IMG/VR virus record: IMGVR_UViG_3300012009_000091
Span: 1-64,000 of that record
Origin: a virus
Reading direction: 5' to 3' (one strand)
DNA length: 64,000 bases
This document shows positions 6,605 through 64,000 of this stretch, piece after piece (the first letter of the stretch is position 1; every line of letters begins with the position of its first letter). The notes under the pieces were generated by a model. That model worked only from the letters and a program-made list of their open reading frames with translations, had not been told where the DNA came from and ran no database searches. Both the position numbers and the translations under genes were made by a program.

Positions 6605-9172
6605 ATGTCAACCGCCATAGCTATGTATCCATCTGCCATGCGTCAAGTAGGTTTTGACGCTCCGTCTGGAATTCTCAAGATTGCTTCCAACCAGATGCTG
6701 ATTCCCCGTAATCGGGGCATTTTGAACCCAGTCGATCCGGAGCTTGAAAAGATCGCGTTGGGCACGCTCCTCAAAGGGCTTGGTAAAGGGCTTGGTAAAG
6801 GTTTAGGATCTCTAGGTAGAACAGGGGCTCGCGGTTTGGGAATGGCTGCGCGTGCGCCGGGTCGGGCGGCAGGGGCCGGGTTGCGTGGTACTGGAAAGCT
6901 TTTGCAGGGGGCGGGAAAACGCCTGACTTCCAAACCATTACTTGGGCGGTTAGGAGGATCTTTACAGCGTAGTGGGATGAAAACTGAGTTGCTCGGTCAG
7001 CAAATGGGATCCTCGACTGCTAGAGCGGGAGCCAGAGCTGCGAAAAGATGGCAACCTGGTGTTTTAGACCGTTCGGCGGAAAGTGTTCGACGGGCTGTTG
7101 GAGGCCGCGCGAGCAAGGCGATGGGGAAACAGCAGTTCAATCAACTCAACCGATTAAAGCACACGGATCCTAAGACATTCTCGCGTTTGGGGCTAGGCAC
7201 ACGCGTTCGGCACGGTATAGCTCGGCGAGGGCGGACTATGACTGATGTCGCTGATGTTCAGCGGAAAACCCGAGGTTTGGGTCAAGTCGGTGCTGATACC
7301 TCGCGCCGGTCTATGGGTCGTTTGCGAGGGCAGATCGAGCGCGTCCGGAAGTATAGTCCGCGGAAAGCACAAAGACTAGAAAGCAGACTTGGTCGAGCTC
7401 ACGAGTCCCGATTTCGAGCGCAGGCGGCGGCTGGTAAAAACCCGAGCGCCTCTCGGTTCTTTAAGGATCCGACCGGAGCTCAGATTCCGAAAACGCCTCG
7501 TCAAGCCCCGTCTTCGGGATCGGCATCGGCGGCTTATAGTCCAACTCAAACTTCCTCGGCCGCCGGTTCGGCTGCTGGACGTGGACCACGGCCTGTGAAC
7601 CGCTCTCGTCGTATTCGTACCCAACAACCGGGTCGACAGACGGGTCGGACAGTGGCGGAGCAGCACGGTCTTTCGCAGTCACAGTCGGCTCCGATCCGTA
7701 GTGCACGTCAGGGAACGCAACTAGAATGGCGGGATGCATCGGGCAAGATTCAACGCGGGTCACCGGAGAGATTTCGTGCCGACCGGGATTGGGCTAGAGG
7801 GACCGGAGCGGATCTACCGACAGCCAGTCCGGTAACTGGACCGGTAACTGGATCCCATCGCTCGTATGCACCGACTGCGGCGCAGAGAGTGCAACCTGTA
7901 GCGACTGGTGCTACTGGGGCTACTGGTGCGACTGGTACAGTCGTGAAAGGACGATTTCAACCAGGAAGAGGCTTAAGCGGACCTACCCAGCCGGTTATGG
8001 GTAAAACGACGACGACGACTCCAGTGAGTCAAACAGCTACACCGACTTCGGCCTCTTCTAGGCAAGCTCCAACTAGTGGCACTTCGGGCGCTAGTCCCAC
8101 TCAGCAGGCCCCCACTCAGCAGGCCCCCACTCGGGCCCAGCAGGCTCAAACGCAGCGGGCCCAGCGGGTTCATTCCTCGGCACAGCAGCAGCGGGCTCAA
8201 ATCCGAGCGGAACGAGCTGCCCATCGGCGGGCACAGCAACGGCAGCAGGGTCAGCAAGGTCAAACGCCGCAAGGTCAAACGCCGCAAGGTCAACAGGGTC
8301 AACAGGGGACGTCGGGTCAGCAAGGTCAGCAGGGGACGTCGGGTCAACAGGGGACGTCGGGTCAACAGGGTCAGCAAGGTCAAACGTCGCAAGGTCAACA
8401 GGGTCAAACGCCGCAAAGTCAACAGGGTCAAACGCCGCAAGGTCAACAGGGTCAACAGGGGGCGTCGGGGTCTACTGGCGAAGGCGCAGAAGGCCCTAGC
8501 TGGTTCTCTCAGCCGTTATGGGAAGGAGCGCCGGCATGGGCTACAAGAGGCATGGGTCTTGGTGCCGGCGGACTGTACTACATGACGAATAAACAAAGCA
8601 GTCAGCGCAATCACGATGGTCGTGAAGTGTTGGCATCAGTGAATCAACATACAGGACGTGTTGATATGGAAAAGAAAGCATTGAATCTTCGTGGATTGGC
8701 CGCTCCGGCCGCTGCTGGTTTGGGGGGAGCTGGACTGGGCGCGTTGTTGGCAAGTCGGGTCCAATCCGATCGGTATGAGCCGTCTCGTATGCCAATGGGC
8801 GCGGGTGCGGTTTATGGACCTCGATACGCCTTGGAAGAGTTCGTTGATGAAGCGGAGGAAGCCGAGAACGAAGCCGCCTTGCAAGAGGCTTTAGCAGAAC
8901 TTCAAGGGAGTGGCGCTGTGTATGATCCCTACGATGAAATGGTCTACAAAGGAGCCAGTGATCGTGGGCGCCAGCGCGCGCGCGTTTTTACTGATGAATT
9001 GTCCAAGCTCGCCTCGGCGGCGTTGGATACGCTGGTTGAGAGTGAGTTGATTTCCCCACAGGTGGCTGCAGAATTCGGGCAGAGTCATGACGTTAGCAAG
9101 TTGGCCAACGTATTTTATGCGTTTGGGACTGCCGCCGCTGCCGCCGACGCTGCCGCGGAGGACCCTACGTAA
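6605..9172 (+). CDS. Low-complexity cationic G/Q-rich protein with multiple K-x-A motifs; putative head-internal/ejection polyprotein
   Basis: 855 aa with Arg/Gly-rich N-half, GQQ/GQTPQ repeats and glycine zippers. Motifs ELEKIA, MEKKA, FTDELSKLA, VSKLA. Confidence 0.6.
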   Translation: MSTAIAMYPSAMRQVGFDAPSGILKIASNQMLIPRNRGILNPVDPELEKIALGTLLKGLGKGLGKGLGSLGRTGARGLGMAARAPGRAAGAGLRGTGKLLQGAGKRLTSKPLLGRLGGSLQRSGMKTELLGQQMGSSTARAGARAAKRWQPGVLDRSAESVRRAVGGRASKAMGKQQFNQLNRLKHTDPKTFSRLGLGTRVRHGIARRGRTMTDVADVQRKTRGLGQVGADTSRRSMGRLRGQIERVRKYSPRKAQRLESRLGRAHESRFRAQAAAGKNPSASRFFKDPTGAQIPKTPRQAPSSGSASAAYSPTQTSSAAGSAAGRGPRPVNRSRRIRTQQPGRQTGRTVAEQHGLSQSQSAPIRSARQGTQLEWRDASGKIQRGSPERFRADRDWARGTGADLPTASPVTGPVTGSHRSYAPTAAQRVQPVATGATGATGATGTVVKGRFQPGRGLSGPTQPVMGKTTTTTPVSQTATPTSASSRQAPTSGTSGASPTQQAPTQQAPTRAQQAQTQRAQRVHSSAQQQRAQIRAERAAHRRAQQRQQGQQGQTPQGQTPQGQQGQQGTSGQQGQQGTSGQQGTSGQQGQQGQTSQGQQGQTPQSQQGQTPQGQQGQQGASGSTGEGAEGPSWFSQPLWEGAPAWATRGMGLGAGGLYYMTNKQSSQRNHDGREVLASVNQHTGRVDMEKKALNLRGLAAPAAAGLGGAGLGALLASRVQSDRYEPSRMPMGAGAVYGPRYALEEFVDEAEEAENEAALQEALAELQGSGAVYDPYDEMVYKGASDRGRQRARVFTDELSKLASAALDTLVESELISPQVAAEFGQSHDVSKLANVFYAFGTAAAAADAAAEDPT
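8246..8462 (+). repeat. Coding tandem repeat (GGTCAACAG / GGTCAGCAA / GGTCAAACGCCGCAA / GGGACGTCG units) encoding GQQ, GQTPQ, GTS
   Basis: Imperfect 9- and 15-nt tandem units are directly visible. Confidence 0.9.
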
Positions 9173-9204
9173 CCTCCGCGGAAAGCCCACCCGACGGAGG
9201 GGTT
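9153..9204 (+). promoter_or_regulatory. Alternative RNA stems around the stop codon of 6605..9172 and the SD of the next gene
   Basis: CCGCGGAGG (9153-9161) is the perfect reverse complement of CCTCCGCGG (9173-9181). CCTCCG can alternatively pair with CGGAGG (9195-9200). Confidence 0.5.
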
Positions 9205-9207: not shown

Positions 9208-9462
9208 GTGGCAGCAGGTACCGCGTCATGGATTACCAACGCTCTGACTCGGGCCAGACGTGGAGCAGGACATCTTCCTGATATTTGGAGGCACGCAACC
9301 AAAGCGGGAGTACCAGCGGGTCAGCGTTGGGACGCTATCAAGAGGTACGTCCAGAGCCATCCAAGCGGGGCTGGGGATCTGGCGACGTTAGGTGCTATGG
9401 CGGTTCCTATGGGAGTCGGTACCTATGATATTGGATCGTCAGTGCTCGATCAACTAACATGA
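9208..9462 (+). CDS. Small hypothetical protein with hydrophobic Gly-rich C-terminal segment (possibly a frameshift extension of the upstream gene)
   Basis: GTG start with GGAGG SD. The frame is open upstream to at least 9160 and reads VKVA at the start. Confidence 0.55.
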   Translation: MAAGTASWITNALTRARRGAGHLPDIWRHATKAGVPAGQRWDAIKRYVQSHPSGAGDLATLGAMAVPMGVGTYDIGSSVLDQLT

Positions 9463-10178
9463 CACTCAGTCGAGCAGAACGCGATATCGAGATATGGCGC
9501 GCGTGGCGTGCGGATCCTGGTCCACACACAACAGAACCACTGCTCGATTCGATTGAACCCATCGTGGAAAGTACTGTACGCAGTGTTTATGGTCGAGGTT
9601 TGACTGGCGGACGTATGCGTGTTCCGCGGGTGGTTGTGAAAGGGATGGCGAATAACCTTGCCTTAAAGCAACTCGAGACAAATTACAGTCCCGACAAATC
9701 CCAGATCAATACCTACCTGACCAACTGGTTGAGTCGAAAGTTAGCTCCCGAATTAAACACGTATCAAAATATCGTACGTATTCCACACGGGAAAGCTGAG
9801 GATATTAAACCGATTCAGCGTGTTACTAATGAGTTGGAAGAGAAGCTTCAACGGACCCCTTCTGATCAAGATATCGCTGACTACATGAAGTTGCCGGAGA
9901 AACACATACAGGCCGTTCGTCATCAAGCGTCTCAGAAGGATTACATCGCCAGTAAGGCGGAGCTCGAAACTGGATTATTCCAGACGCCGTTTCAGCGCGC
10001 GCTACGGCAGACATACATCGATTTACCGTCTCAGGATCGAGCGCTCTTTGATCTGTGGGTCAAACAAAACAAAAAGCCGGATGAGCTGATGAACTTGCTG
10101 AACGTCAATCGACGACAGTTGTCTGAAAGTCAGTCGAGAATTCGGTCTCATCTCTCCGAGAACTTGGCATTCTCATGA
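9459..10178 (+). CDS. Phage sigma-70-family RNA polymerase sigma factor (group 3 / FliA-SigF-like architecture)
   Basis: Region 2 YSPDKSQINTYLTNWL...IVRIP; region 3 ELEEKLQRTPSDQDIADYM; region 4-like LPSQDRALF...ELMNLLNVNRRQL. Confidence 0.85.
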   Translation: MTLSRAERDIEIWRAWRADPGPHTTEPLLDSIEPIVESTVRSVYGRGLTGGRMRVPRVVVKGMANNLALKQLETNYSPDKSQINTYLTNWLSRKLAPELNTYQNIVRIPHGKAEDIKPIQRVTNELEEKLQRTPSDQDIADYMKLPEKHIQAVRHQASQKDYIASKAELETGLFQTPFQRALRQTYIDLPSQDRALFDLWVKQNKKPDELMNLLNVNRRQLSESQSRIRSHLSENLAFS

Positions 10179-31344: not shown

Positions 31345-31674
31345 ATGTATTACGTATTCCGTAAGACAGACGGATGGATTCTACAGCAAGTTGCTACGCC
31401 TCCGGTGGTAGGCAAAGCGCCTCATCTTGATATTCTGGAGGTGGACCATGAAACTATTCCGTCTCAGGAATTGAAGTGGTTCCGTGTGGAGAACGGCAAG
31501 GTTGTGCGCCATTCTACAGCAGGACAGGCCGTGCGTTCGTCAGAGAAAAAGGCAGCGAGGCGAGAGAAGATTCGGGAATTCTGGCAGTTGCTAGCTCAGG
31601 AGCAGGCGACGGTGAGCGATATGCAGAACGCGCTCCGGCTTCTCGCCGCTATCTTGAATGTTCCCAGACGCTAA
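31345..31674 (+). CDS. Putative tail fibre assembly/chaperone protein
   Basis: SD AGGAG; last gene after the fibres; WFRVENGKVV plus a helical C-terminus. Confidence 0.5.
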   Translation: MYYVFRKTDGWILQQVATPPVVGKAPHLDILEVDHETIPSQELKWFRVENGKVVRHSTAGQAVRSSEKKAARREKIREFWQLLAQEQATVSDMQNALRLLAAILNVPRR

Positions 31675-46325: not shown

Positions 46326-47429
46326 ATGCTTCAAGTAGATCCTTACGACGATAATCGAGAGCGGTTGAATCAACTTCCAGTCGAACTACGTGATGAATTG
46401 CTCAAAACAGGAGCAGATTTGACGTCGACACTCAATTCTCTTCCAGATGTTGACTTTGCTTTGGTCGTAGTGGCTCCCGGTGAGGACAATCGGATTCATA
46501 AGTTTCGGAAGTTTGCGTGTGTGGATGAGGGAAACACAGCCCAGTCCGTGTGGTACTTTTTACAGACGCGCAATCATCTGCCGGATGAGATGCGGAAGGT
46601 GGCTGCACAAAATCTTTTGCGAAGTGCGCGGGATTTTGAGCTCACCCCACCGCCCGATTTGGTGCTGTTGGCCGAAGAGGAAGATCCTTTGCCCGTCACC
46701 AATGTTGTTATCTCCTCTATGGACAAGATCGCGTCGTTTCTTCCTCCGCCAGAAACGGTGGAAAAGATCGCGTCCGAACCTGTTCCTGTGATCAACTGCA
46801 AAGAAGATGTCTTCGACGCTCTTGCTTACTACCACGACAACGCCTTTGCTTTGGATGGGTGGGAAAAGCAAGCACTGGCCCGTCTGCTCGTTCCAGCGGC
46901 CGAAAGATTCGAGGTATCTGTGCCGACGGAGATCGAAAAGCGCGCGGCAGATACCTATGCCGCGGATCTGGTGGAAGCCGTTGTGTGTCGTCAGGTTATG
47001 TTGGCTCCTGAGGATGACTCAGAAGAGTCTTTCCAGAAGGTCGCTCATGTGAACGGCCAGTATCAAAGTCTACTGTGGAGCCGAGCTGATATGGGCCCTA
47101 CCGAATTCGCGCATGAACTTGATCGGATCGACAGTCTGGCTCAACTAGACGGATTTGTTCCAGATGCGGTGTATTCGACCTTCGGGAAGGTTGCGCAAAC
47201 TCAGCCAGATCCTATTTTTGATAACGGGGTCAACAAGCTTTATGAGGACGAGCTCGTCTGGTTTTGTCAGAGCTATCCCAAGATGGTGGAAAACCAATTC
47301 GGAGAGGAGCTTGCAACCGCCATTCTGAAGAAGCCCGTTGTGATTTTTCAATCCCTACCGAAGCCAGTTCAGGTCGCGTTAGCTCGTCTGATTGCTCAGA
47401 AGAAGTCTGAGTACGGGGTTCAACTGTGA
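46326..47429 (+). CDS. K-x-A-motif-rich protein, putative prohead core/scaffold
   Basis: GGAGG SD. Motifs RKVA, DKIA, EKIA, EKQA, EKRA, QKVA, GKVA; two genes upstream of the portal-like gene. Confidence 0.6.
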   Translation: MLQVDPYDDNRERLNQLPVELRDELLKTGADLTSTLNSLPDVDFALVVVAPGEDNRIHKFRKFACVDEGNTAQSVWYFLQTRNHLPDEMRKVAAQNLLRSARDFELTPPPDLVLLAEEEDPLPVTNVVISSMDKIASFLPPPETVEKIASEPVPVINCKEDVFDALAYYHDNAFALDGWEKQALARLLVPAAERFEVSVPTEIEKRAADTYAADLVEAVVCRQVMLAPEDDSEESFQKVAHVNGQYQSLLWSRADMGPTEFAHELDRIDSLAQLDGFVPDAVYSTFGKVAQTQPDPIFDNGVNKLYEDELVWFCQSYPKMVENQFGEELATAILKKPVVIFQSLPKPVQVALARLIAQKKSEYGVQL

Positions 47430-48235
47430 CGAAGGACGCCAAACCGGAAGTTCGTGTTCTGACGATCCACGGCTGGTTGGACGATCTGGATACTCTTTTC
47501 CAGGATGTCCCCGAAGGGACAGTAGATGATTTTGAGATCGACGAAGATCCTGATGAGGATCTCGATCCAGGCGTGCCCGAAGTAGTCACTACAACGTTTA
47601 CGTTGACAGATCTAGAACCGACCACCCTTCTTTTTATTCTCCGACATCAATTCGGAAAAGATTGGTGGCAGCAAGATCGAGAAGCTCTGTTTGAGCTACT
47701 ACGCACTATCGGGCAGACGGTGGATGAGCCTGACAAAGACGCTATTCGTGCGCTGCAACTTCTTCATGTGGATGAGGCGTTTTGGACAGAGTGGGAAGTA
47801 TTTAACTGGATCACGCAGGGGCTGACCGACGGACAAGTCGATTTCACCAATCTGCCTGTTCTCTCGCTGAAAGACATCATGCGATCGATGTTGATGGCCA
47901 TGATCGTAGCACAGAGTCAAAAGGTAGAAGCACATTACAGCGAGGAGACTCTCTCGTACATTGCTGCAACGTGCGTGGAGCACGGTCTTTGGGCTTTGCC
48001 CTTCCCTATGGATGTGGCACAATCCCGCATTCAGCAGATCTTGAAGTGGCGGGGAGCGTCGGATCTGCCTATTGGTCACGTGAAGCAGCTCGTCAAAGAG
48101 AGTGCGACTCCTACGCCCGTAGACGAAGTGTCTACGCAAGCGTACCGATTCCGACTCCTCTTGGATTTTGCCATTCAAGGTCTGAAAGAGACGAAGTCGG
48201 AAATTGACGCTTACAGAGACGCAGTCAAGGAATAG
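47426..48235 (+). CDS. Hypothetical helical protein (head module)
   Basis: GTGA overlap; lies between the K-x-A protein and the portal-like gene. Confidence 0.65.
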   Translation: MTKDAKPEVRVLTIHGWLDDLDTLFQDVPEGTVDDFEIDEDPDEDLDPGVPEVVTTTFTLTDLEPTTLLFILRHQFGKDWWQQDREALFELLRTIGQTVDEPDKDAIRALQLLHVDEAFWTEWEVFNWITQGLTDGQVDFTNLPVLSLKDIMRSMLMAMIVAQSQKVEAHYSEETLSYIAATCVEHGLWALPFPMDVAQSRIQQILKWRGASDLPIGHVKQLVKESATPTPVDEVSTQAYRFRLLLDFAIQGLKETKSEIDAYRDAVKE

Positions 48236-48238: not shown

Positions 48239-50236
48239 ATGTTCGGATCTTCGGCCAGTCTTTCCTCTCCGATGACCCAGCGGCATAATACACGCGGCTC
48301 TGGGCGAATCGGGATTAACTACCCGAACCCCTTCTTTGATTTGTCGCAGATTTACCTACCCCAGAACATGCGCTCGTTGTTCAAGTGGTGTAGATACTAT
48401 GCACTCACGTACGGGCCCATTTTCGCGTTTGTCACCAAGATGGCCTCGTACGCATTGACTCGGTTAGTATGGGGAAGTGATGCCCAGGCAGACCCTGAAA
48501 GGAGGGCTAATCAGAATCTAGCGACGCAGTGGAAAGATTTCTTTGAAGATACGCTGCAGATCTACAAGGCGTGTTATCGAGGTGGGCTGCATTACTGGAC
48601 GTACGGTAATTGGTACTTGTCTATTCACTATCCGTTTGATCGGTGGCTCGCCTGTCCTTCATGTAAACATGAGATGCTGGCGAGAAGATTCCCCAAGAAG
48701 GGGTATCGGTGGCATAGTTACAAGTTCCACGGTAGGTGTACAGCATGCGGATCTGATGTGACTTTCAAAGTCAAGGATGTGCCAGTCCGTTCAAGCAAAC
48801 GCATCAAGCTCAAGCTGTGGAATCCCGAACGTGTGTATCCAGTCGTCAATGAAGCGACGGACGATGTGGAATACTACTATAAGCCGACTCAACAGCTCAT
48901 CAAACGTATCGATCGAGGCGATCGGAAAGTCGTAGAAACTACGCCTTGGCCTTTTATTCAAGCGGCTAAGAAAAATAAAGACGGGTTGGTCAAGTTCAAC
49001 AATCGGAACTTCTTGCACATCTCCGCTCCATCACCCGACGGAAACGAGACGGGGATGGGGCACCCGCCGATACTAGCGGCCATCAAGGATGTGTTTCACT
49101 TACAGTTGATGAAGAGGGCACAGGAGGCTAATGCTGTAGAGCGGACTATTCCTCTTACCGTAGTGCACCCTCTCCCGATGGGAGATGATACGATCAATCC
49201 TCTTCAGTCCACGAATTTAGTCAACTTGATGGACTTCCTCAAAGATGAGGTGGCGATCGCGCGCCGAGATCCCAACTACATTCCATTTTCTCCTCTTCCT
49301 GTCGGCACGTCGCATATCTGGGGAGAAGGGAAGAATCTCCTCCTCGTCCCGGAGATTCGTGGGTGGACCGAGTTGATTGCAGCTGATCTCGCGGTGCCCA
49401 TTGAGTTTATGTTTGGCGGGATGCAATGGTCAGGGTCCAACGTCAGCTTGCGTATGCTCGAGAATCAGATCCTGACTTTCACGACTGGGTACAAGCAGGT
49501 CACTAGGTTCGTCACCAAAGCTGTGGCTAGATTCTTATGGTGGCCTGAGTGTCCGCATGACTGGACTCCGTTCAAAATGGCCGATGACATACAGCTCAAG
49601 CAGCACATGTTGATGTTGTCGCAGCTGAACAAGATTGGTGATTCTACTCTACTCTCTCACTTCGGGAAGAACCCTGTCGATGAAAAAGCCGACATCGAAG
49701 CTAGCATGAAGCAAGCGAATCGCATCGCAAAAGATCAGTTGCTTGCTCAAGCGGAGGCTCAGGTTGAGGCCATGGAGATGCAGCAGAATGCTCAGATGGA
49801 GATGCAGCAACAGCAGAGTACGGGACTTCCTACCGAAACCAGTCAGGCTGCGGCGGGAGCGCCACCTCCTGTGCAAGAGGAGGAATCACAAGAGGAGTTT
49901 GCATATCGTATGGCGGAGCAGCTTGTGAATCAGTCTGAAGATGTGATCCAGCAGACGTTACAACAGGTGTCTGCTCAGTCTCCAGAATTAGCTCAGTTCA
50001 TCTATCAGTTGATTCAACAGCTTCGCGCGGAGACGCAGCAGCCTGTGCAATATGGTCAGCAGCCTGCCCAACAGCCTGCCCAACAGCCTGCTATGGGCGG
50101 ATACAATCAAGCTCAGGTTGTTAGCGGTCCAGAAGGCCAGCTACATCAACAATATGCAGCATCGACTCGACAGATGATGCAGCCTCAACCGCAGATGCGT
50201 CCTCCACAGCGGGGACCTGCTAGTACAGCAATCTGA
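48239..50236 (+). CDS. Putative portal protein with zinc-ribbon insertion and Gln-rich tail
   Basis: YWTYGNWY, KLWNPERV, FLHI...GMGHPPI, ADLAVPIEF..G pattern typical of portal folds; CPSC...CTAC insertion. Confidence 0.6.
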   Translation: MFGSSASLSSPMTQRHNTRGSGRIGINYPNPFFDLSQIYLPQNMRSLFKWCRYYALTYGPIFAFVTKMASYALTRLVWGSDAQADPERRANQNLATQWKDFFEDTLQIYKACYRGGLHYWTYGNWYLSIHYPFDRWLACPSCKHEMLARRFPKKGYRWHSYKFHGRCTACGSDVTFKVKDVPVRSSKRIKLKLWNPERVYPVVNEATDDVEYYYKPTQQLIKRIDRGDRKVVETTPWPFIQAAKKNKDGLVKFNNRNFLHISAPSPDGNETGMGHPPILAAIKDVFHLQLMKRAQEANAVERTIPLTVVHPLPMGDDTINPLQSTNLVNLMDFLKDEVAIARRDPNYIPFSPLPVGTSHIWGEGKNLLLVPEIRGWTELIAADLAVPIEFMFGGMQWSGSNVSLRMLENQILTFTTGYKQVTRFVTKAVARFLWWPECPHDWTPFKMADDIQLKQHMLMLSQLNKIGDSTLLSHFGKNPVDEKADIEASMKQANRIAKDQLLAQAEAQVEAMEMQQNAQMEMQQQQSTGLPTETSQAAAGAPPPVQEEESQEEFAYRMAEQLVNQSEDVIQQTLQQVSAQSPELAQFIYQLIQQLRAETQQPVQYGQQPAQQPAQQPAMGGYNQAQVVSGPEGQLHQQYAASTRQMMQPQPQMRPPQRGPASTAI

Positions 50237-53200
50237 TGCAAGAGATATATAATTTCGATCAAATCAAAGAATCGGTTCAGGAGGCTCTCGGCCAGATTTT
50301 TCCTGTCGCTGGAAGAAACTTGGTTGTCGATCTCAATTCTCTTGATATACGAGATCGGAAGAATCCCGCATCGGTTCATGAGCAGTACGGAGCGTTGACG
50401 TCAGGTCGTTCGTGGACCATCCCGGTCTATGCCAACGTTACGCTTCGCGGCCCGGACGGGGAGTTGGATCGAGGACGGGTTAAAGTACTTGAACTTCCGA
50501 AACTGACCGAGAGAAATACGTTTATCGTCGATGGGAACGAACGTCAGTTGCACAGTGTGCTTCGACGGAAATCCGGAGTGTACACGCGACATGATGAAGT
50601 GGGGGACCTTGTTTCCGAGTTCAATTTGGATAACGGTCTGCATGAGGGAGGAAAGACTGACCGAGGTCGGAAGTTCGCCATACATTTCGACAACACGACC
50701 AACCAGTTCTACACACGTTTAGGTGGAAAGAAGAAAATCAATGCCTACACGCTTCTCGAGTCTCTGGGTCACGATATGGAGGGTCTCCGACAGCGCTTTG
50801 GGGATGAGATCCATTCGAAGAATCTCAAACGGACGTCGAAGAAGATCAAGCAAGATGTTTCGAAGATCTATGACACGATCTACGGATCGAAGGCCAAATC
50901 AGGATTGACTTCAGACCAGATGCGGCAACAGATCCAAGAGGCTTTCCGTAGAACGAAAGTAGATCCGGATACGACTAAAGTTACCCTTGGTACGCCAGCC
51001 GATTCCATTGACTCTAACATCCTCGTGAGAAGCATGGACAAGTTGTTGAACATCTCTCGCGGTCAGGAGAAGGAAGATGATCGTGAGAGTTTGGTGTTCA
51101 AGAAGGTCGTGTTCCCCCCGCAATTGATTGCGGAACGTGTGTCGCATCACCGCAACATCGAGCAGATTCGAGGGAAGATTCGGGCCAAGCTCAATGTCCG
51201 CGGTCGTGGTCGGAAATCACCTGAGCGAGTTGGCGAAGCTGTACCTACGCGCTTGTTGGATAAACCTTTACATGATCTCTTCGCTGAGTCGACCGAATCC
51301 GATCTGGTTGATCAACCTAACCCTGTAGGGATTGCGTCGGGCTACAATCGGATCAGCATGTTGGGTACAGGTGCAATTCGGTCTCTTGATCAGATCCCAT
51401 CAAGTGCTCCTCTGATTTCTCCGTCTCACTTAGGATATATTGATCCGCTACATACTCCAGAGTCGCATAAGGCCGGCGTGTCTGTACATCTCCCGATGAA
51501 CACCAAGATGGGAGAGGACAAACGCCTCGTTTCTCGTATGTTGACTCCGGATGGAGAGGAGAAGTGGGTAGCCGCGGAAGACGCTGCTCAAGCGGTGGTT
51601 GCTGCTCCTGATAGTTACGATATGCGTAGCGGTCGTCCTGTGCCCCGCGGTAAGACTGTTCAAGTTCAGCGAAATGGAGAGATTGAAGACGTCGATCCGA
51701 CTGAAGTAGATTACATCATCCCTCATGCGCGTGATGTGTTCGATGTTGCTACGAACTTGGTGCCTTATCTTCAGAACAACCAAGGGAATCGCGCGATGAT
51801 GGCCGGAAAACATGCTACTCAGGCGCTTCCCTTGAAATACAGAGATACTCCTCCAATTCAAACAGGAATCGAAGGAGATTTAGGCGAGACTGCCGGTGCA
51901 CGGAGGTCGCCTGTTTCAGGGCGTGTTTCTGATATCACTGAAGTGGATGGCGCGTATGAAATCCGCATCCAAGAATCAGGAAAGACCCGTCCGACCATCG
52001 TTCGTGCGTATCGCAACTATCCCATGGCGAAAGGCGTGGTGATGGATTCAGACTTGAAGGTCCAACCAGGGGACTCAGTCAAAACGGGTGATCTTCTAGC
52101 GGATTCGTCTTTCACCAAGGATGGTATGCTGTCTATGGGGACGCCTCTTCGTACAGCTTACATGCCTTGGTATGGCAGGAACTTTGAGGATGGGGTCGTC
52201 ATTTCGGATCGGGCCGCAGACCAGCTCACGTCTCTTCATCTCCATGAAAAGTCAAAGTATGAACCTGAGGCTATCAGTGATAAAACTCGGTTTCTGGATT
52301 GGTATCGGGCTCGATTTCAATCGCAAGATGAGATCAATGCTCTTGATGGAAGTGGTGTGATTCAGAAAGGGCAGACTGTCCAACCTGGTCAGATCCTGAT
52401 GGCTCGACTCAAACAGGTCGAGCGAGATAGTGAGGAAGCTAGACTTCGCAAACGGATGAAGCTAACGCCGTTTGATCCAGTCGTCATGACCTGGGATAAG
52501 GAGGTGCCGGGGACAGTCACTGATGTTCGGAAGAACCGAGACGGTACTGTCCGCGTCTTTGTGAAGACCGAAGAGAAGATGCGGGAAGGAGACAAGCTGG
52601 TCAGCCGCAATGCAAATAAAGGGATTGTGGTGAAGATCCTACCTGACGCAGAGATGCCACAAACAAAAGACGGGAAGCAAGTGGATGTTCTCTTGTCACC
52701 ATTAGGTATTCCTAGTCGCATTAATCTAGGACAAGTACTTGAGACGGCGGCGTCCAAAGTCGTAGAGAAAACAGGGAAACCGATCAATCTGTCGGATCAG
52801 ATGTTTGGCCCCAATAGCGATATTAAACATGTCCAACGATTACTGAAAGACGCTAAAATCACTGATACAGAAGAGCTGGTCGATCCTACTCGAGGGAACA
52901 AATCATTCGGGAAGGTTTTTACTGGTCCACAGTATTTCTATAAGTTGGAACATCAAGTCGCAAAGAAAGAGCGCTCTCGAGGACAAGGAAAATATGATCG
53001 ATGGGATGTGCCTGCAGGGGGAGATGGAGGCGCGCAGACCATCGGAGAGTTAGGCACGTACGCCATGTTGTCTCATGGGGCGGTTGAGAATCTACGGGAC
53101 ATGCAGCTCTACAAATCTCAGAAGAATGATGAGCTCTGGGATGCTTTGATCCACGGCCAACCTATCCCGCCTCCTAAACACATTACGCCCAATGTGCGCT

Positions 53201-56200
53201 TCGAGTCTTTATTGCGTACTGCTGGGGTGAAGTTGAAGAAAGGGGATACACTCAGTTTGATCCCACAGACCGACGAGCAGACCGAAAAGCTGGCTCGGGG
53301 ACGTCCTCCGCTGGAGGACGCCGGACGGATGTATGCGTTTCAACGAGATCGGGTTGTGGAAGAGCCTGAAGGCCTGTTTGATCCTGTCAAGACTGGTGGG
53401 TCAGAGGGAGATAGGTGGAGTTACTTTCGGCTTCCGGAACCGATTCCCAATCCAATGTTTGCTCCGGCTATTTCGTCTTTGACGGGTTGGTCTGAGTCTA
53501 CACTCAAACGGGTGGTCGAGGGTAAACAGGAATATGGGGGTTTGATCGGTGGACCGGCGGTCGCGAAGCGCCTTGAGGAGGTAGATCTGGATGCGGAAGA
53601 AGCGAAGCTTCGGGAGCAAGCCCAGAGTGTACAAGGAAGAAAACGCCTCAACATGGAGAACAAAGCCAAGGAGTTGAGTCGGATCTATCGGAGACTTCGG
53701 TATGTAACGGCTTTGAAAGGTCGGGATCTTCGTCCTGAGAAAGTGTATATGATGCAGAATGTTCCTGTTCTGCCGCCAAAGTTGCGTCCTGTTATCGCTC
53801 TTAGTAGTGGGGAGCGGTCGGCTGACGACATGAACAACCTTTATCGAGATCTTGCGCTGGTTTCGAATACTATGAAGGAGAGTCAAGAGCGGGGGGTCTC
53901 TCCTAAGCACCTGCAGCCTTTGCGTGGCGCCTTGTATGATGGCCTCTCTGCTTTGATCTCTGCTAAGAGTGGGGATCGCCCGTTGAGTGGGGCATACAGA
54001 GGGGTCATTGGTTCTATCTCCGGTAAACGCCCTGTAGAGGAGGGAAAAGGCGAAGTAGGGCAGGCCAAAGGCGGATTATTTCAAGATCAAATCACGCGTC
54101 GTCGACAGGATTTCTCAGCTCGGACGACGATCACGGTTGAACCTCGACTCGAGATTGATCAGATTGGTATGCCCTTCAAAATGGCGTACGAGATTTATTC
54201 TCCGTGGGCACAAAAGCGGTTGCGGGAAAAGTATGGGTACGCTACTCGAGACGCGCGTAAGTACTATGAAGAGAAGGGCCCTGATGATCCGCGTGTACGG
54301 GACGTTCTCTCTGATGCGGTAGCCGAGCGGCCTTCACTTGTCAAACGGGATCCCGCTTTGCACAAATTCAACGTGATGGCTTTCAATCCAGTTCTGGTGG
54401 AAGGCAGTGCATTACAAATCCACCCGTTGGTGACCGGAGGATTCAATGCGGACTTTGATGGCGATACGATGTCCGTATACGTGCCTGTGAAAGAGGAGGC
54501 GGTTGAAGAGTCTTATAAGATGTTGCCTTCTAACAACATCTACAATCCGACAAACGGCAAGTTGATGTACGCCCCGAGTCAAGAAATGGTTTGGGGCTTA
54601 CACAGTCTCACTAGCGTAGGAAAGAAGACCAATTGGAAGTTTGGATCTCGCAAAGCAGCGGAAAGCGCGTTGAATCGTGGGGATGTTCACCAAACAGATC
54701 GCATCAAAATAGGCACGCGTGAGACAACTTTAGGGTGGGAAAAAATCAACGACATTCTCCCCGGCCGGTTTCGTTTCAAAGGGTCTTTGGACAATCGAAA
54801 GCCACTTGACAAGCATCGAATTTCTGACTTGTTGAGTAAGGTCGCTGCAAAGGAACCTGAAACATTCGCCCCACTGGTAAACACTCTCAAGGATGTCGGT
54901 AATCAAAACGCTACAGAAGATGCGTCGTCTTTTTCTCTGAAAGACTTTGATGTGGTAGGTCAGGAGTTCCGAGATCGCACTTTTCGGGAAGCCGAAGAAA
55001 AGGCATCTCGAAGTAAAGATCCACTTGGCGTGCTGTCTGATGCGCTCAAGAAAGTTGATCGACACACTCTTGAAGTGCTGAGTTCGCAAAAGAAGCCGAA
55101 TGCGATCTTTCAAATCGTCACGTCGGGATCGAAGGCCAGTTGGCCTCAGCTCAAGCAAATTGTCAGTGCTCCTGCATTGGTGTACGACACTCAAAATCGA
55201 ATTGTCCCGCGATTGATCAAAAAGTCGTACAGTGAAGGTTTACCGTTGATGGATTATTGGACGGGTCTCCACGGAGCCCGAAAAGGGGCTATCAATAAGT
55301 CCATCTCGACGTCCCGTCCCGGATATCTTGGGAAACAGGTGATGCGGTCTGTGATTGATCAGGTTGTTGTGGAAGATGATTGCGGAACGCGACAAGGTCG
55401 ATCGATGTCGCCGGATGATCCAGAAGCGGTTAATCGGTATTTGGCGTCCGGTATTCGAGTTCAGGGCGGGAAGCGAGATCGGAATTTCAATCGTAATTCG
55501 GTGGTAACGCCGAACATAGTGTCCTCTCTTCGTGCCCACAAGACCCCTTCGATACATGTACGATCTCCCATGCGATGCGAAAGTACGGACGGTGTGTGCG
55601 CTAAGTGTATGGGGTTGGACGAGGAAGGACGGGATTATGCCGTTGGAACGAATGTCGGTGTTCAGGCCGCTCAAGGAGTAGGGGAGCCGTCGACGCAGTT
55701 GTCATTGAATGTATTTCATACCGGTGGGGTGGTAGAGGATCCCAATATTCCTGTTGAGAGCGATCGTCTGCAGCGTGCTGAACACTTGTTGCGGCTTACT
55801 CAACGAATCCCCAATAGTGCTGTGCTCTCTCCGAGATCTGGAAAGATCGAAGGAGTACGAGAAGCTCCTCAGGGAGGACATGAGGTTAAGATCGATGGAA
55901 AAGAGATCTACATTCCCCATGAGAAGAAGTTGTTCGGCAGTATCAAACCGGGTCAGGAGATAGGCAAAGGCGATCCGATGACAGCGGGGCCCATCCATCC
56001 GCTCGAGGTATTGAAGTACAAAGGTACGTATGCCGCGCAGGATACTCTCGCGGATCAATTGTACGACCTCTATAAGGGTGCTCGTGGCACCAAGAAGAAA
56101 CACTTTGAGGTGATCGTACGAGGGATGTCCAAGAACACACAGGTATTGGATCCAAAGGACTCTGAGTGGGAGTCTGGACAAGTGACGTCATTGACGAAAG

Positions 56201-56478
56201 TTAAGAAACATAATCGAGAAGCAGGGAAAGACCAGCGGGTCAAACATCTGCCTATCATGCGTGGAATTGGGACGTCTCCCCTGTTGTCTGAAGATTGGAT
56301 AGCTCGGCTCAATGGAGAGCGACTTCGGAGTACTATCGTAGGGGCGGCCACTCAAGGTTGGGAATCTCAGGCGCACAGTACTCACCCTATCCCCGCGATG
56401 ACTTTTTTGAATGAAGAAGAGCTGTCGGAAGAGTCAGGCTTTGGGCGGCCTATCCAACCGATACGATCTCCGTATTAG
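50236..56478 (+). CDS. rpoBC: Fused beta-beta' multisubunit-type DNA-directed RNA polymerase (single polypeptide)
   Basis: Beta motifs: FIVDGNER, TPE, NRAMM, GRNFEDG, GDKLVSRNANKG, PLGIPSRINLGQ, YKLEH, GAQTIGELG. Beta' motifs: PVLPPKLRP, RQDFSAR, RDPALH, NADFDGD (54445-54465), HGARKG, DDCGT, RSPMRC..VCAKC, GEPSTQLSLNVFHTGG. Confidence 0.95.
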   Translation: MQEIYNFDQIKESVQEALGQIFPVAGRNLVVDLNSLDIRDRKNPASVHEQYGALTSGRSWTIPVYANVTLRGPDGELDRGRVKVLELPKLTERNTFIVDGNERQLHSVLRRKSGVYTRHDEVGDLVSEFNLDNGLHEGGKTDRGRKFAIHFDNTTNQFYTRLGGKKKINAYTLLESLGHDMEGLRQRFGDEIHSKNLKRTSKKIKQDVSKIYDTIYGSKAKSGLTSDQMRQQIQEAFRRTKVDPDTTKVTLGTPADSIDSNILVRSMDKLLNISRGQEKEDDRESLVFKKVVFPPQLIAERVSHHRNIEQIRGKIRAKLNVRGRGRKSPERVGEAVPTRLLDKPLHDLFAESTESDLVDQPNPVGIASGYNRISMLGTGAIRSLDQIPSSAPLISPSHLGYIDPLHTPESHKAGVSVHLPMNTKMGEDKRLVSRMLTPDGEEKWVAAEDAAQAVVAAPDSYDMRSGRPVPRGKTVQVQRNGEIEDVDPTEVDYIIPHARDVFDVATNLVPYLQNNQGNRAMMAGKHATQALPLKYRDTPPIQTGIEGDLGETAGARRSPVSGRVSDITEVDGAYEIRIQESGKTRPTIVRAYRNYPMAKGVVMDSDLKVQPGDSVKTGDLLADSSFTKDGMLSMGTPLRTAYMPWYGRNFEDGVVISDRAADQLTSLHLHEKSKYEPEAISDKTRFLDWYRARFQSQDEINALDGSGVIQKGQTVQPGQILMARLKQVERDSEEARLRKRMKLTPFDPVVMTWDKEVPGTVTDVRKNRDGTVRVFVKTEEKMREGDKLVSRNANKGIVVKILPDAEMPQTKDGKQVDVLLSPLGIPSRINLGQVLETAASKVVEKTGKPINLSDQMFGPNSDIKHVQRLLKDAKITDTEELVDPTRGNKSFGKVFTGPQYFYKLEHQVAKKERSRGQGKYDRWDVPAGGDGGAQTIGELGTYAMLSHGAVENLRDMQLYKSQKNDELWDALIHGQPIPPPKHITPNVRFESLLRTAGVKLKKGDTLSLIPQTDEQTEKLARGRPPLEDAGRMYAFQRDRVVEEPEGLFDPVKTGGSEGDRWSYFRLPEPIPNPMFAPAISSLTGWSESTLKRVVEGKQEYGGLIGGPAVAKRLEEVDLDAEEAKLREQAQSVQGRKRLNMENKAKELSRIYRRLRYVTALKGRDLRPEKVYMMQNVPVLPPKLRPVIALSSGERSADDMNNLYRDLALVSNTMKESQERGVSPKHLQPLRGALYDGLSALISAKSGDRPLSGAYRGVIGSISGKRPVEEGKGEVGQAKGGLFQDQITRRRQDFSARTTITVEPRLEIDQIGMPFKMAYEIYSPWAQKRLREKYGYATRDARKYYEEKGPDDPRVRDVLSDAVAERPSLVKRDPALHKFNVMAFNPVLVEGSALQIHPLVTGGFNADFDGDTMSVYVPVKEEAVEESYKMLPSNNIYNPTNGKLMYAPSQEMVWGLHSLTSVGKKTNWKFGSRKAAESALNRGDVHQTDRIKIGTRETTLGWEKINDILPGRFRFKGSLDNRKPLDKHRISDLLSKVAAKEPETFAPLVNTLKDVGNQNATEDASSFSLKDFDVVGQEFRDRTFREAEEKASRSKDPLGVLSDALKKVDRHTLEVLSSQKKPNAIFQIVTSGSKASWPQLKQIVSAPALVYDTQNRIVPRLIKKSYSEGLPLMDYWTGLHGARKGAINKSISTSRPGYLGKQVMRSVIDQVVVEDDCGTRQGRSMSPDDPEAVNRYLASGIRVQGGKRDRNFNRNSVVTPNIVSSLRAHKTPSIHVRSPMRCESTDGVCAKCMGLDEEGRDYAVGTNVGVQAAQGVGEPSTQLSLNVFHTGGVVEDPNIPVESDRLQRAEHLLRLTQRIPNSAVLSPRSGKIEGVREAPQGGHEVKIDGKEIYIPHEKKLFGSIKPGQEIGKGDPMTAGPIHPLEVLKYKGTYAAQDTLADQLYDLYKGARGTKKKHFEVIVRGMSKNTQVLDPKDSEWESGQVTSLTKVKKHNREAGKDQRVKHLPIMRGIGTSPLLSEDWIARLNGERLRSTIVGAATQGWESQAHSTHPIPAMTFLNEEELSEESGFGRPIQPIRSPY

Positions 56479-56487
56479 AGGACCACC

Positions 56488-58201: not shown

Positions 58202-58683
58202 TGTGAAAAAACGTGGAGCGAGAACGGACAATGAGTAACACAGTTTTACAGGCTTTTGTAACTGCTTTTGAGAAATGTGCAGTTGATCCTGAATCTGCGT
58301 TGGCTGGAGGAGGCGTCGGCACTTTGGTCGGAGGGGCGGGTGGTGCGACCATTGCGGATCGGGCAATGAAGGCGTATATGGCGCGGAAGTACGGGTTGAA
58401 TAAAATCAATCCTGCGTACTTAAAGCACTTGCGAGGGCGGGCTCGTGGGGCGGGAGCTTTGGGAGCCGCTATTCCACTCGGTCTTGCAGGTGCATTAGCG
58501 GGAGGTATGATAGGGGGGTGAGAAAACGGTCAGCAGTGTGAAGACACGTAGAGTGAGAATGGACAATGAATAACACAGTTTTACAGGCTTTCGTGACTGC
58601 TTTCGAGAAGTGCGCAGCTGATCCTGAATCTGCTTTGGCTGCCGAAAGCGTCGGTGCTTTGGTTGGAGGGGGTGAGAAAACGG
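58202..58683 (+). repeat. Imperfect direct repeat (about 135 nt, offset 335 nt) covering upstream region and leader of two small genes
   Basis: TGTGAA..ACGT.GAG.GAGAA.GGACAATGA.TAACACAGTTTTACAGGCTTT...GATCCTGAATCTGC.TTGGCT at 58202 and 58537. Confidence 0.9.
58231..58521 (+). CDS. Small glycine-zipper protein with AFEKCA leader
   Basis: MSNTVLQAFVTAFEKCA followed by two GxxxG segments. Confidence 0.7.
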   Translation: MSNTVLQAFVTAFEKCAVDPESALAGGGVGTLVGGAGGATIADRAMKAYMARKYGLNKINPAYLKHLRGRARGAGALGAAIPLGLAGALAGGMIGG

Positions 58684-58991
58684 CCGGTAGGCGGCGGAGG
58701 CTCCTTCTCGGGTTGGGCGGTTTAGGTGCGTTGACAGGTGGAGGGTTGTTAGGTCTGCAAGCATTGGGGACAAAAAGCGGGGACTGGGAGGACTACTTGA
58801 TTCCAAATCCGCAGGCTATAGCTGCGGGAGGGGAGCGTGTAGGCCAGTTGTCTGGGCAGTTGGCCGCTCATTTTGCCCGTCAAAGACCGACTACTATAAG
58901 CGATATGCGCGAAAGCAGTAGAAAGTGGAGGGGCCGACTCGATGGTATCAGTGACCGCATGTCCAATGCCGTTTTAGACTATGATTTGTGA
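58566..58991 (+). CDS. Small glycine-zipper protein with AFEKCA leader and second EKTA motif
   Basis: Paralogous leader; RRRRLLLGLGGLGALTGGGLLG after EKTA. Confidence 0.7.
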   Translation: MNNTVLQAFVTAFEKCAADPESALAAESVGALVGGGEKTAGRRRRLLLGLGGLGALTGGGLLGLQALGTKSGDWEDYLIPNPQAIAAGGERVGQLSGQLAAHFARQRPTTISDMRESSRKWRGRLDGISDRMSNAVLDYDL

Positions 58992-63000: not shown

Positions 63001-63412
63001 GGTGTACTCTCCTACGAATCGACAGCCGGATGTGTTAATCGACGGCCTCCGTCGGATTCTTTTTTATGGAACATCACATTTTGTGGTCTCTCTCGTGGGG
63101 AATGCGACTGACTGTTCACTACGAGTGAGTGTCGGCAGTGTCGACTTTGATTCCACTGGATTCACTTTCGCCGCTGAGGATCAGATTGAACTGGTCGTTG
63201 GTGTGACTTATGGCCTGGCTGATGTAAAGTATAAAGTGACGATCAACGACTCGGTCGAGATCGACGAGACGAAAAACTTCGCGGTTTCTGTACCGTACAT
63301 TGACGACTTGGTGACTCCTGGTGCTAGAATATATGTCGGATCAGATCCAAATGGGGGGCACTCATGTCTCGGTCGGATCATCAATCTGAAAGTAGAGGAT
63401 GAAATCACATGA
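59819..63412 (+). CDS. Large virion protein: helical N-domain, Gly-rich linker, tail-fibre/carbohydrate-binding-like C-region
   Basis: GLLLEGAVNNQF and AQWEQGPLSSPVPT...RREPD resemble the GLLIE..TN and QLE.G..TSYIPT..R.AD motifs of phage fibre domains. Confidence 0.6.
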   Translation: MSMSEWKQTKLFSPDASRFLLELSSGTSSYVREGSRWLDNLADLAGPLRAIVEALNLASPSIGILNAAAAAIQALINDFLESGAYLIIHHNFQSVLDYFGIANVHGDAEAVSNLDPVPTGLGPDASWGDQWLTVDELDFFEGTHFQDVQGFEEWVRDILNAFHDPLDPRRPRIDADGQIGGFLFLTGAPDLLSFAPLIESVATLFELREIRLLWEGLKRLESIDLTDLARLRSAGMFSFVQDSAFQGRGQAPDFMSFKVGDLIPQIGSVLVSFDALADILQASDTVGNVVQALLTIIEHKLRRLSEAVEKVAGLTDWLGRFSQAASTWSVLPLEVESGGVSNLATRIQQSINRPPFGAGSLLFGGGVFVTRPEIYDLLESLFEFTEDPRAHTTLNLTPFDRLAGMDVSEAVIPSEDWAAWSGTELSMSRIARGVYNRQGFLNSTSRGVALTPTEGLSPGLLGGLGGGEDEAGAGGGRPGIAPGGRGDTLNPSSGGSGRPGVSRPGSEEGESIGGIGSTVGGMTLQRASWGAHKIEVTDVRMGTEEGRAVISETGRRTYFVNHAAHDVPRSEPFALSGSGVLPTGLLLEGAVNNQFWDSDRLSQTTLGSSLISRELVLNGAPTTDLSRFRDDAGPVAKLTAEQEIVSWLYTGLTGSVDHSGCAISNVNQSDGSPLILDSSFIGKRVYGRQRTNILAVERWTPFITKIIDVDPATRTIFIAPSVFTEPLALNMMIETFSITELDSGPYYTYVEQLIDSFDTGLGTFSVFARAENAYSSWNTVCLGLTGDLLGPGYFVEQSLELPLLRTLIEPSNGFQIEDGVLIADPGSPEIPEGSLVELYTTSDQITVFYVAEVEEDATSVRITLETAAGDPLEFLDHTIDSVLIRDVSGTYQGFLRASLELPVRHTSRCAIVPPLTDTPMLTLAHQQVQDIEAGVVELDETVTSLTYDAALGGVSYRLELGVGLEGRAAIRLSASAHALYVGRLIQVDYRMDFRSGYARIYPNKFQYPGVIYAWRAQWEQGPLSSPVPTAPSSSRRREPDKLFAEGGVFRIPVDAEAQVTAVYSPTNRQPDVLIDGLRRILFYGTSHFVVSLVGNATDCSLRVSVGSVDFDSTGFTFAAEDQIELVVGVTYGLADVKYKVTINDSVEIDETKNFAVSVPYIDDLVTPGARIYVGSDPNGGHSCLGRIINLKVEDEIT

Positions 63413-64000
63413 TCACCAGCTTGTTCACCCAGCCTGAGAAACTAGCCGCCGGAGCGTCGAGCTCCATCAAGACTCGAGTGGAAGGGCCGCCGGAGACCTG
63501 GGCCGAACAGGCTATGTCAGATCTCTACGAGGAGCACCCGTACGTCGCGGAGTATCAACCAACCATTGATGTGGTACGCATGGATCCGGACCGCGGATAC
63601 ATGGTGGCGTTCATCAGCATTGAAGGGAACAACAAGAAAATCAATATTCCTGTAATCGTACAGGACCATGAGTTGCTTCCCTACGCCACGTTTGCGTCCG
63701 GCGATCAGATCTTTCCTCTTACGGAGGATCGTTTGGCGTCGGAGTTGCTAGATTATGTAGCGGAGCGAGGGGTCGACATGACTGACCGGGAACTGGAACA
63801 GATGCTCCAGTTTCAAGAGCTCGAGCCGCCGGATAGCACAACTTGGGGTGGGAATCGGACTGTTCTTAGCAAACTCAGCTGGGCGCATATGGACGACTTT
63901 CATGACTTCATGGAGAAGTCCAACAGCGCTGTCTATTCGACGGTGAGAGAGCGTGTTCAGCAGCTTGAGAAGAAAGCGAAACCTCTGTCAAACGGCATCA
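63409..64000 (+). CDS. K-x-A-motif protein, putative head protein (3'-truncated by window)
   Basis: ATGA overlap; open to the window end. Reads MITSLFTQPEKLAAG...LSKLS...LEKKA. Confidence 0.7.
   Translation, partial: MITSLFTQPEKLAAGASSSIKTRVEGPPETWAEQAMSDLYEEHPYVAEYQPTIDVVRMDPDRGYMVAFISIEGNNKKINIPVIVQDHELLPYATFASGDQIFPLTEDRLASELLDYVAERGVDMTDRELEQMLQFQELEPPDSTTWGGNRTVLSKLSWAHMDDFHDFMEKSNSAVYSTVRERVQQLEKKAKPLSNGI

Follow-up and report, generated by a model that had tools for sequence, protein, structure and literature searches.

The 64,000-nucleotide window examined here (positions 1 to 64,000 of IMG/VR record IMGVR_UViG_3300012009_000091, the opening 64 kb of an uncultured phage's complete genome, which has 167,069 bp and direct terminal repeats) raises the question of why one short amino acid pattern, Lys-x-Ala (K-x-A), recurs in proteins that are otherwise unrelated to one another. 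A first-pass annotation of the window had taken it for a distinct signal that marks proteins for the phage head and for processing there. Systems of that kind are familiar: T4 gp21 and phiKZ gp175 cleave head proteins at short Glu-ending motifs, and T4 internal proteins carry an N-terminal capsid-targeting sequence (CTS). The most economical reading, and in our view the likeliest, takes K-x-A as the sequence at which a divergent head protease of the gp21 fold cuts, most likely a new specificity within a well-known kind of system. More exactly, we propose, from sequence and a structural model and with a probability of roughly 0.6, that the phage's own gp21/assemblin-fold serine head-maturation protease, encoded past the window end at genome 72650–75340, recognizes and cuts this motif (genes and proteins are named below by their start coordinates; features are collected in Table 1).

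All strings quoted by the first-pass annotation are present where it had placed them (LKIAS at residues 24–28 of the 6605 protein, ELEKIA at 46–51, MEKKA at 688–692, YKGAS at 781–785, FTDELSKLAS at 794–803 and VSKLA at 830–834; AFVTAFEKCA in the 58231 and 58566 proteins, with EKTA at residues 37–40 of the latter; PEKLA and LEKKA in 63409); the “seven copies” in 46326..47429 are, by our count, eight. Expected counts were derived from the composition of each protein separately, and composition is therefore accounted for in what follows. The pattern [ES]K.A (a dot marking any residue) occurs 22 times in the window against 7.7 expected (Poisson p 2e-5), and over the whole proteome K.A ranks first of the 400 gap-1 residue pairs (229 against 166 expected), so that the excess over compositional background, without which the first-pass annotation would have given up its proposal, is well above chance. 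This excess lies wholly inside the plus-strand head module at 46–90 kb (93 against 51.4 expected, rank 1, p 1e-7; the rest of the genome holds 112 against 97.7), and in the gapped-pair counts the gap-1 pair alone is enriched, with no enrichment of the KA and K..A spacings. Enumerating all three-residue patterns within five positions across the proteome, the enrichment check that had been proposed, gave a signal specific to the head module as well: M.K.A, EK.A, L.K.A, K.AA, K.AS and F.K.A head the list there, and none is high elsewhere in the genome. As a control on method, the same statistic was applied to the proven gp21 substrates of T4 (gp22, gp21 and the gp23 and gp24 propeptides), where L.E came out at rank 1, I.E at rank 3 and K.A at rank 12; since it retrieves the established (L/I)-x-E motif, the method succeeds on a case whose head-protease motif is already known.

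The sites give a logo of acidic-acidic-[L/M/F/I]-[E, also Q/V/D/T]-K-[T/V/I/L]-A-[S/A]-[A], and the full motif, as read from these sequences, is [L/M/F]-[E/Q/V]-K-[T/V/I/L]-A followed by Ser or Ala. Around K-x-A, the positions that carry information are −2, with a hydrophobic residue, and +3 and +4, with Ser or Ala; Glu at −1 is common yet replaceable. Ser at −1 is depleted in the relatives described below (45 against 79.8 expected), and the “(E/S)” prefix with which the motif had first been written is therefore half right: Glu holds up, Ser is not favored, and the prefix is not the determinant. Synonymous codons at the sites vary freely, so the signal works at the protein level. When a position weight matrix (PWM) trained exclusively on distant relatives was applied to the genome under study, 20 sites in the head module (13.1k residues) scored at least 3 bits. 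The tail block has 3 sites at this threshold, two of them in the 6605 protein, and the other 29.9k residues have 2 (Fisher p 5e-9 for the head module against these 29.9k). In families that can be aligned, K.A pairs stay in the same alignment columns three times as often as other pairs (p 2e-4). About a third of the instances first listed as signal sites look like chance. MEKKA and YKGAS in the 6605 protein fall below the PWM score threshold, VKVA at 9202 lies at or beside a start codon with neither score nor conservation to support it, and a tail-fibre EKVA (22865 protein, residue 1089) is not conserved. The EKLA at the beta/beta′ junction of the RNA polymerase (residue 1018) is missing in all relatives; it is consequently not counted as a site, and the polymerase, which has no site excess, is ruled out as a substrate.

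The pattern is a property of a family rather than of one genome. IMG/VR contains 258 relatives of the major capsid protein, most of them on contigs of 145–195 kb, and K.A is the top gapped pair within 10 kb either side of the capsid gene in 31 of 47 related IMG/VR loci and among the top five in 41. Four whole relatives were retrieved (G001–G004, with capsid proteins 41–43% identical to that of the genome under study, G000), all of which have a fused RNA polymerase and the same gene order. Within the capsid protein itself, K-x-[A/S] stands exactly 9 residues before an [IV]RD[KR]LRE anchor in 40 of 40 distinct N-termini; the check proposed for K-x-A at the end of a capsid propeptide thus finds the motif fixed at the presumed propeptide position.

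Might the motif simply arise, with no signaling role, from the composition, helix periodicity and paralogy of helical head proteins rich in Glu, Lys and Ala? Many of the sites do fall in predicted helices of such proteins, the 58231 and 58566 proteins are paralogs, and even the gp21 substrates of T4 show a mild K.A excess (11 against 5.7). We consider this very unlikely: the expectations were computed protein by protein, only one spacing is enriched and its flanks are specific, unrelated folds have sites fixed in their disordered N-termini, the motif is missing from helical proteins in the rest of the genome, and the pattern recurs across phages whose capsid proteins are only 23–45% identical.

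The prohead protease, which the first-pass annotation had asked to see located, is likely to be the 72650 gene, a gp21-fold gene of the head module whose own N-terminus bears the motif. Orthologs free of the intein that interrupts the G000 copy are ~570 residues long, and their alignment reveals invariant HH-N-KD and VSMG motifs, with H117/H118 and S174 (of VSMG) invariant in 25 orthologs. We examined an AlphaFold2 (AF2) model of the N-terminal 300 residues of the G003 ortholog (predicted local distance difference test score, pLDDT, 77) against 48,161 PDB representatives. The best match was T4 gp21 (5jbl; Z 9.5, root-mean-square deviation 2.7 Å over 130 residues), followed by the varicella-zoster virus protease (1vzv, Z 6.9), with the human cytomegalovirus and Kaposi's sarcoma-associated herpesvirus enzymes at 4.6 and 3.7 and the next unrelated match at 5.5; in Foldseek the top three matches were all to 5jbl, weakly (E 0.03). 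The model thus has the assemblin-type fold of MEROPS clan SH (families S21, S77, S78 and S80). The invariant His and Ser are 56 residues apart, where T4 gp21 has 55. The disordered N-terminus carries a conserved FEK[V/T]AS at residues 27–33, and the gene sits beside the scaffold and capsid genes in an order (large terminase TerL, 70439, 71541, protease, 75337, the scaffold-like 75593 and 76410, capsid protein) that is the same in G001–G004 and in the cultured Salmonella phage Arash (OQ632216). The intein of G000 is inserted right behind the invariant Ser motif (LSMG|C...HN|C); inteins directly after VSMG occur in at least eight relatives (including L026, L040, L048, L053, L076 and L082), and their common insertion point marks a recurrent homing site. 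Pfam gave no match for the intein-free ortholog, and PDB sequence searches with 71541, 72650, 48239 and a profile of the protease returned intein matches or noise and nothing else. An earlier candidate for the protease, 47426–48235, was set aside: a five-way alignment has no conserved catalytic residues, the protein looks helical, and an Atlas search was empty.

The sites could instead be cut by some other enzyme, either a host protease or a second phage protease. There is precedent in staphylococcal phage 80alpha, in which a host protease is used for short N-terminal leaders, and one relative offers a candidate of its own: the product of G003:72338–73486 has two glycine-rich membrane-like stretches, a HEIGH motif and a weak Peptidase_M48 match (E 0.005, below the curated cutoff), and may be a second protease in the relatives. 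We give this explanation slight credence. No ortholog of the M48-like gene was detected in G000, the motif is constant although the hosts of the family are probably diverse, and the gp21-fold protease is universal in the family, adjoins the substrates and bears the motif itself.

If the gp21-fold enzyme does cut at K-x-A, its richest substrates would be a set of scaffold- or core-like proteins. The multi-site proteins belong to the same syntenic families in every genome (46326, 63409, 70439, the protease, the pair of scaffold-like proteins encoded ahead of the capsid gene and those encoded behind it), and site density in the scaffold-like members is about one per 23 residues; G003_127355, 282 residues long, has 12. 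Orthologs of the 46326 protein carry 11–14 K-x-A, several in common alignment columns; in its AF2 model (m96ffb18241c6), which is helical, residues 119–151 are disordered (pLDDT <50), and a fold search with this model found uncharacterized phage proteins only. Orthologs of 63409 have 5–8 sites scoring at least 2, with K-x-A at residues 14–20 in four of five (the closest relative, L084, being the one without), and the N-terminal region resembles, as judged by eye, that of Arash gp218, an abundant virion protein.

A second recurring element, an amphipathic helix, ends in the same motif. Its consensus, (A/S)F-[L/S/T]-DEL-x-KIA, opens twelve proteins in G001, G003 and G004 with differing bodies, which are either glycine-zipper proteins or enzymes with InPase (PF18823), Peptidase_C92 or DUF5661 domains; the PHROG families matched by leader-bearing proteins include minor head protein, virion structural protein and DarB-like antirestriction. 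A hidden Markov model (HMM) built from these leaders matches, in G000, 75337 (ESFLDELDKIA, E 5e-7), 80655, the C-terminal helix of 6605 (E 0.003) and 46326. A short common N-terminal leader is likewise found on 58231, 58566, 83410 and 89294 of G000, the QAFVTAFEKCA leaders of the first two being a divergent variant of the canonical helix, and the same hydrophobic-x-K-x-A-[S/A] recurs at leader ends, in the N-termini of the capsid protein and the protease and in the scaffold-like proteins, as in a CTS-type group. The cationic or glycine-zipper segments said to follow the motif are real, in that the leader bodies are strongly enriched in GxxxG-type zippers and basic residues; in the 58566 protein, an Arg run and then a glycine zipper follow the second site.

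The 6605 protein probably belongs with this group. The zipper pattern occurs 15 times in it against 4.1 expected, and its N-terminal site pair (GILKIA, PELEKIA-L) matches a pair in G003_75082 and G004_23089 (...ELQKIA..PGLEKVA-L/M). Several leader-bearing genes of the relatives sit between the hub and sigma-like genes, the place of 6605 in G000, and 6605 corresponds by position to the leader-bearing Gly-rich and enzyme proteins of those relatives. Syntenic with it are G003:75855–76874 and G004:21272–23089, leader-bearing proteins that carry InPase (PF18823), Peptidase_C92 and DUF5661, domains present among the minor head, virion structural and DarB-like proteins of PHROGs. Window positions 7900–8470 (residues ~430–620 of the 6605 protein) encode a long Gln/Gly/Thr/Ser-rich repeat tract (QGQQGQ, TPQGQ) with weak PHROG tail-fibre matches, probably due to low complexity. 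Outside the virion modules, two further small proteins (genome 116208–116444, minus strand, and 160842–161150, plus strand) open with a helix ending in LEK-x-A, followed in the former by a glycine zipper. The sigma-like proteins of the relatives (G001:66384–67154, G002:158693–159496, G003:70058–70819 and G004:26952–27722), orthologs of window 9459–10178, have a leader-like N-terminal NP-x-EEFL...K-x-A stretch; a sigma leader was rejected as a general feature, since G000 9459 and Arash gp10 are without it.

An explanation confined to the small glycine-zipper proteins, namely that their leader directs export or membrane insertion, in the manner of holins, spanins or bacteriocins, and has nothing to do with the capsid, draws on their basic, GxxxG-rich, membrane-like bodies and on the minus-strand copy at 116208 outside the virion modules. 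It is the least probable account that we weighed, and highly improbable: the leader, being acidic and amphipathic, is without a hydrophobic core, its terminal motif also closes the propeptide-like N-termini of capsid protein and protease, and soluble enzymes with polyvalent-protein domains begin with this leader in the relatives.

Arash, an orphan cultured myovirus whose capsid protein is 23% identical to that of G000, has protease and motif alike. Within the head block K.A ranks first among the pairs (50 against 23.8 expected), gp222 bears the protease signature NAMGAGEYYGSN-N-G, and PWM matches are confined to gp220 (8), gp221, gp222 (residue 30), gp223 (6), gp225 (5) and the capsid protein gp226 (GLVKEA, residue 27); gene order is similar, and no canonical AF-DEL-KIA leader was seen on the Arash tail, hub or sigma proteins. 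Virion mass spectrometry detected the motif proteins together with the beta, beta′ and sigma subunits of RNA polymerase, beta and beta′ being among the most abundant proteins (PMC10585845), an abundance that hints at a virion-associated polymerase. Unlike the fused chain of G000, beta and beta′ are separate genes in Arash (PMC10585845). Further afield, mycobacteriophage I3 has a weaker K.A bias driven by gp103 (L133 4111–8337; 1,408 residues), which is encoded just upstream of the capsid gene, contains 18 K-x-A against 8.1 expected and recalls the protease family at its N-terminus; Bixzunavirus, too, may have the motif.

These data also bear on the possibility that K-x-A and its amphipathic helix form an uncut docking or assembly motif, which would bind the scaffold, the capsid interior or the portal and so recruit proteins into the prohead. 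The conserved (A/S)F-x-DEL-x-KIA does look like a binding helix, it is internal or C-terminal in 6605, 75337 and 80655, and the motif-rich Arash proteins gp220–gp225 are still found in virion preparations at 80–100% coverage. That preparation identified 116 proteins, however, and for this reason says little about processing. A docking motif would not be expected to recur every ~23 residues in scaffold-like proteins or in disordered linkers, nor to occupy the propeptide position in both the capsid protein and the gp21-fold protease, and the statistic that singles it out is the one that retrieves a true cleavage motif in T4. We therefore judge docking without cleavage unlikely.

Set beside known systems, a proteolytic K-x-A system would have parallels to several and be identical to none. 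With T4 gp21, its best structural match, the 72650-family protease shares a similar His-to-Ser spacing, a three-residue motif with a free middle position, a scaffold studded with sites (gp22 in T4) and short motif-ending N-terminal leaders on unrelated small proteins (IPI–III and Alt in T4). It differs in lying outside Pfam PF03420, in its motif (K-x-A(S/A) here, (L/I)-x-E in T4), and in a ~300-residue extension with sites of its own, to which an intein is added in G000; the leader, too, is here a 12–16-residue amphipathic helix, sometimes internal, and the putative cargo mostly consists of glycine-zipper proteins. With phiKZ gp175 and SPN3US gp245 it would have in common large myovirus heads, many processed proteins and self-processing of the protease (PMC10052503, PMC5694885). 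Propeptides of 20–24 residues and multi-site propeptides are documented for SPN3US gp245, and the motif there is A-x-E with Ser at P1′ (PMC10052503); the Ser preference at P1′ and the P3-x-P1 layout would be the same in the present family, but with Lys at P3 and Ala at P1. The phiKZ/SPN3US motif, A/S/G-x-E, has Glu at P1, and those phages have no detectable sequence relation to this protease and a different capsid-protein lineage. RNA polymerase subunits are associated with virions in phiKZ-like phages, as mass spectrometry indicates for Arash. Herpesvirus assemblin, of the same fold, cuts (V/L/I)-x-Ala|Ser, which resembles the Ala-Ser/Ala at the 3′ end of the motif; its consensus does not have the conserved Lys two residues before Ala, it acts at few sites, and we know of no leader-tagged cargo for it. 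In the literature searched, no K-x-A head-protease motif is described.

Several observations weigh against a gp21-like protease that cuts at K-x-A. PF03420 (Peptidase_S77) gave no match at E <= 10 in G000, G001, G003 or G004, which points to a separate sequence family with a common fold, and an hhalign comparison with T4 gp21 paired fPDVSM with IPGVSS at a probability of 0.2, which is not significant; the catalytic assignment accordingly rests on the fold and on residue invariance. In most relatives the residue that follows the motif Ala of the capsid protein is Glu or Gln rather than Ser or Ala. With a low score cutoff, 14 of 71 sites lie within the first 41 residues where 16% is expected, and the N-terminal enrichment is not significant. 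The leaders of 58231 and 58566 score weakly against the HMM of the relatives' leaders (E 12–19), and the canonical helix lies near the C-termini of 6605 (residues 793–803) and 75337 (residues 57–72), positions that leave these instances uncovered by a simple N-terminal-leader picture. The Arash paper, finally, mentions neither a protease nor processing and gives no peptide list (PMC10585845).

Weighing these points with the rest, we infer cutting, a scissile bond and capsid loading as follows. As the prohead assembles, it would take in the capsid protein, the protease and the scaffold-like and core proteins (46326, 63409, 70439, 75593, 76410, 80655 and 81180). The protease would then cut at K-x-A, probably after Ala, a placement suggested by the P3-x-P1 layout of the T4 and SPN3US motifs and by the Ala|Ser of assemblin. 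Capsid protein and protease would each be relieved of a propeptide of ~30 residues, and the multi-site scaffold and core proteins would be reduced to small pieces. The amphipathic helix (A/S)F-x-DEL-x-KIA, or its window variant QAFVTAFEKCA, ends in the same motif and heads small basic glycine-zipper proteins (58231, 58566, 6605, 83410 and 89294) and, in the relatives, enzymes with polyvalent-protein domains; it is most likely a propeptide or a capsid-loading tag removed inside the head. Of the original proposal, the part concerning processing and leaders has the motif placement, the conservation and the protease gene behind it, and the capsid-targeting part stands by analogy with T4.

The remainder of the genome supplies the setting. 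Tail, hub, baseplate and fibre proteins are encoded at 0–31 kb (among them the sigma-like 9459 and a VgrG-like DUF2345 protein at 10989), a replication block occupies the minus strand at 31.7–46.2 kb, and the plus-strand head module, which holds TerL at genome 67363 and the capsid gene at 78374, runs from 46.3 to ~90 kb; many of its proteins are unannotated, and Pfam and PHROGs gave little information for most of them. The portal assignment of 48239 derives from its G003 ortholog, which matches PHROG portal weakly (E 0.002); in Arash, portal Gp204 is two gene numbers ahead of RNA polymerase beta, Gp206 (PMC10585845). The single-chain beta-beta′ polymerase (2,077–2,492 residues) is kept across the family (window 50236–56478, G002–G005 and L084). 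In G002, the terminase, probable portal and DNA polymerase (31351–34455, 53310–56636 and 68748–72563) are 400–600 residues longer than in the other genomes, which suggests further inteins.

Table 1. Features of the K-x-A system and neighboring genes (window coordinates unless marked genome; aa, amino acids).
Feature	Coordinates	Strand	Remarks
855-aa Gly/Arg/Gln-rich low-complexity protein with glycine-zipper segments	6605..9172	+	Predicted substrate or cargo
K-I-A site, aa 25–27 of 6605 protein	6677..6685	+	PWM 1.8; relatives' leader-end site at same position
K-I-A site, aa 49–51 of 6605 protein (PELEKIA-LG)	6749..6757	+	PWM 4.0; matches relatives' second site PGLEKVA
Leader-type helix RVFTDELSKLA, aa 793–803, near C-terminus of 6605 protein	8981..9013	+	PWM 5.1
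367-aa mostly helical head-module protein	46326..47429	+	Eight K-x-A (1.8 expected); scaffold- or core-like
Two K-I-A sites in disordered linker of 46326 protein: MDKIA-S (aa 134–136), VEKIA-S (aa 147–149)	46725..46772	+	PWM 3.1, 4.8
Probable portal protein	48239..50236	+	Not motif-rich; context gene
Fused beta-beta′ RNA polymerase	50236..56478	+	Context; K-x-A 9 seen, 9.3 expected
96-aa protein: 17-aa leader MSNTVLQAFVTAFEKCA (58231–58281), then basic glycine-zipper body	58231..58521	+	Zipper 8, 0.5 expected
141-aa paralog of 58231 with same leader (58566–58616); second site EKTA-G (58677–58685)	58566..58991	+	PWM 2.3, 1.1
635-aa head-module protein; N-terminal site PEKLA-AG (63439–63447)	63409..64000 in window, to genome 65316	+	
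Likely prohead protease with Hint/LAGLIDADG intein	genome 72650–75340, past window end		Fold and invariant residues
Major capsid protein	genome 78374–79450, past window end		K-x-A site aa 29–31
Motif-rich proteins past window end	genome 70439, 75337, 75593, 76410, 80655, 81180, 83410, 89294		

A wider reading can be put as a single joint claim, which we hold tentatively and, taken whole, think less likely to be right than wrong. A clade of 145–195-kb myoviruses, nearly all uncultured, together with Arash and perhaps the Bixzunavirus mycobacteriophages, would have a gp21-fold protease that cuts after Ala at K-x-A|S/A, like herpesvirus assemblin, and a transferable amphipathic tag, AF-x-DEL-x-KIA, that loads a changeable arsenal into the capsid for injection. 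The arsenal would comprise membrane-active glycine-zipper peptides and cell-wall- and nucleotide-acting enzymes and, in some members, a sigma factor for the phage's own RNA polymerase.

Arash is cultured, has the motif and the protease, and comes with existing virion mass-spectrometry data, so that the prediction of cleavage at K-x-A is directly testable. If confirmed, Lys-x-Ala would be a new specificity class among phage head-maturation proteases, standing between the Glu-cutting T4 and phiKZ enzymes and the Ala-cutting herpesvirus assemblins of the same fold; the short leader could possibly be reused for loading foreign proteins into capsids, and a simple sequence rule would predict which proteins are built into the capsid, processed or delivered in a very large, unannotated phage family.

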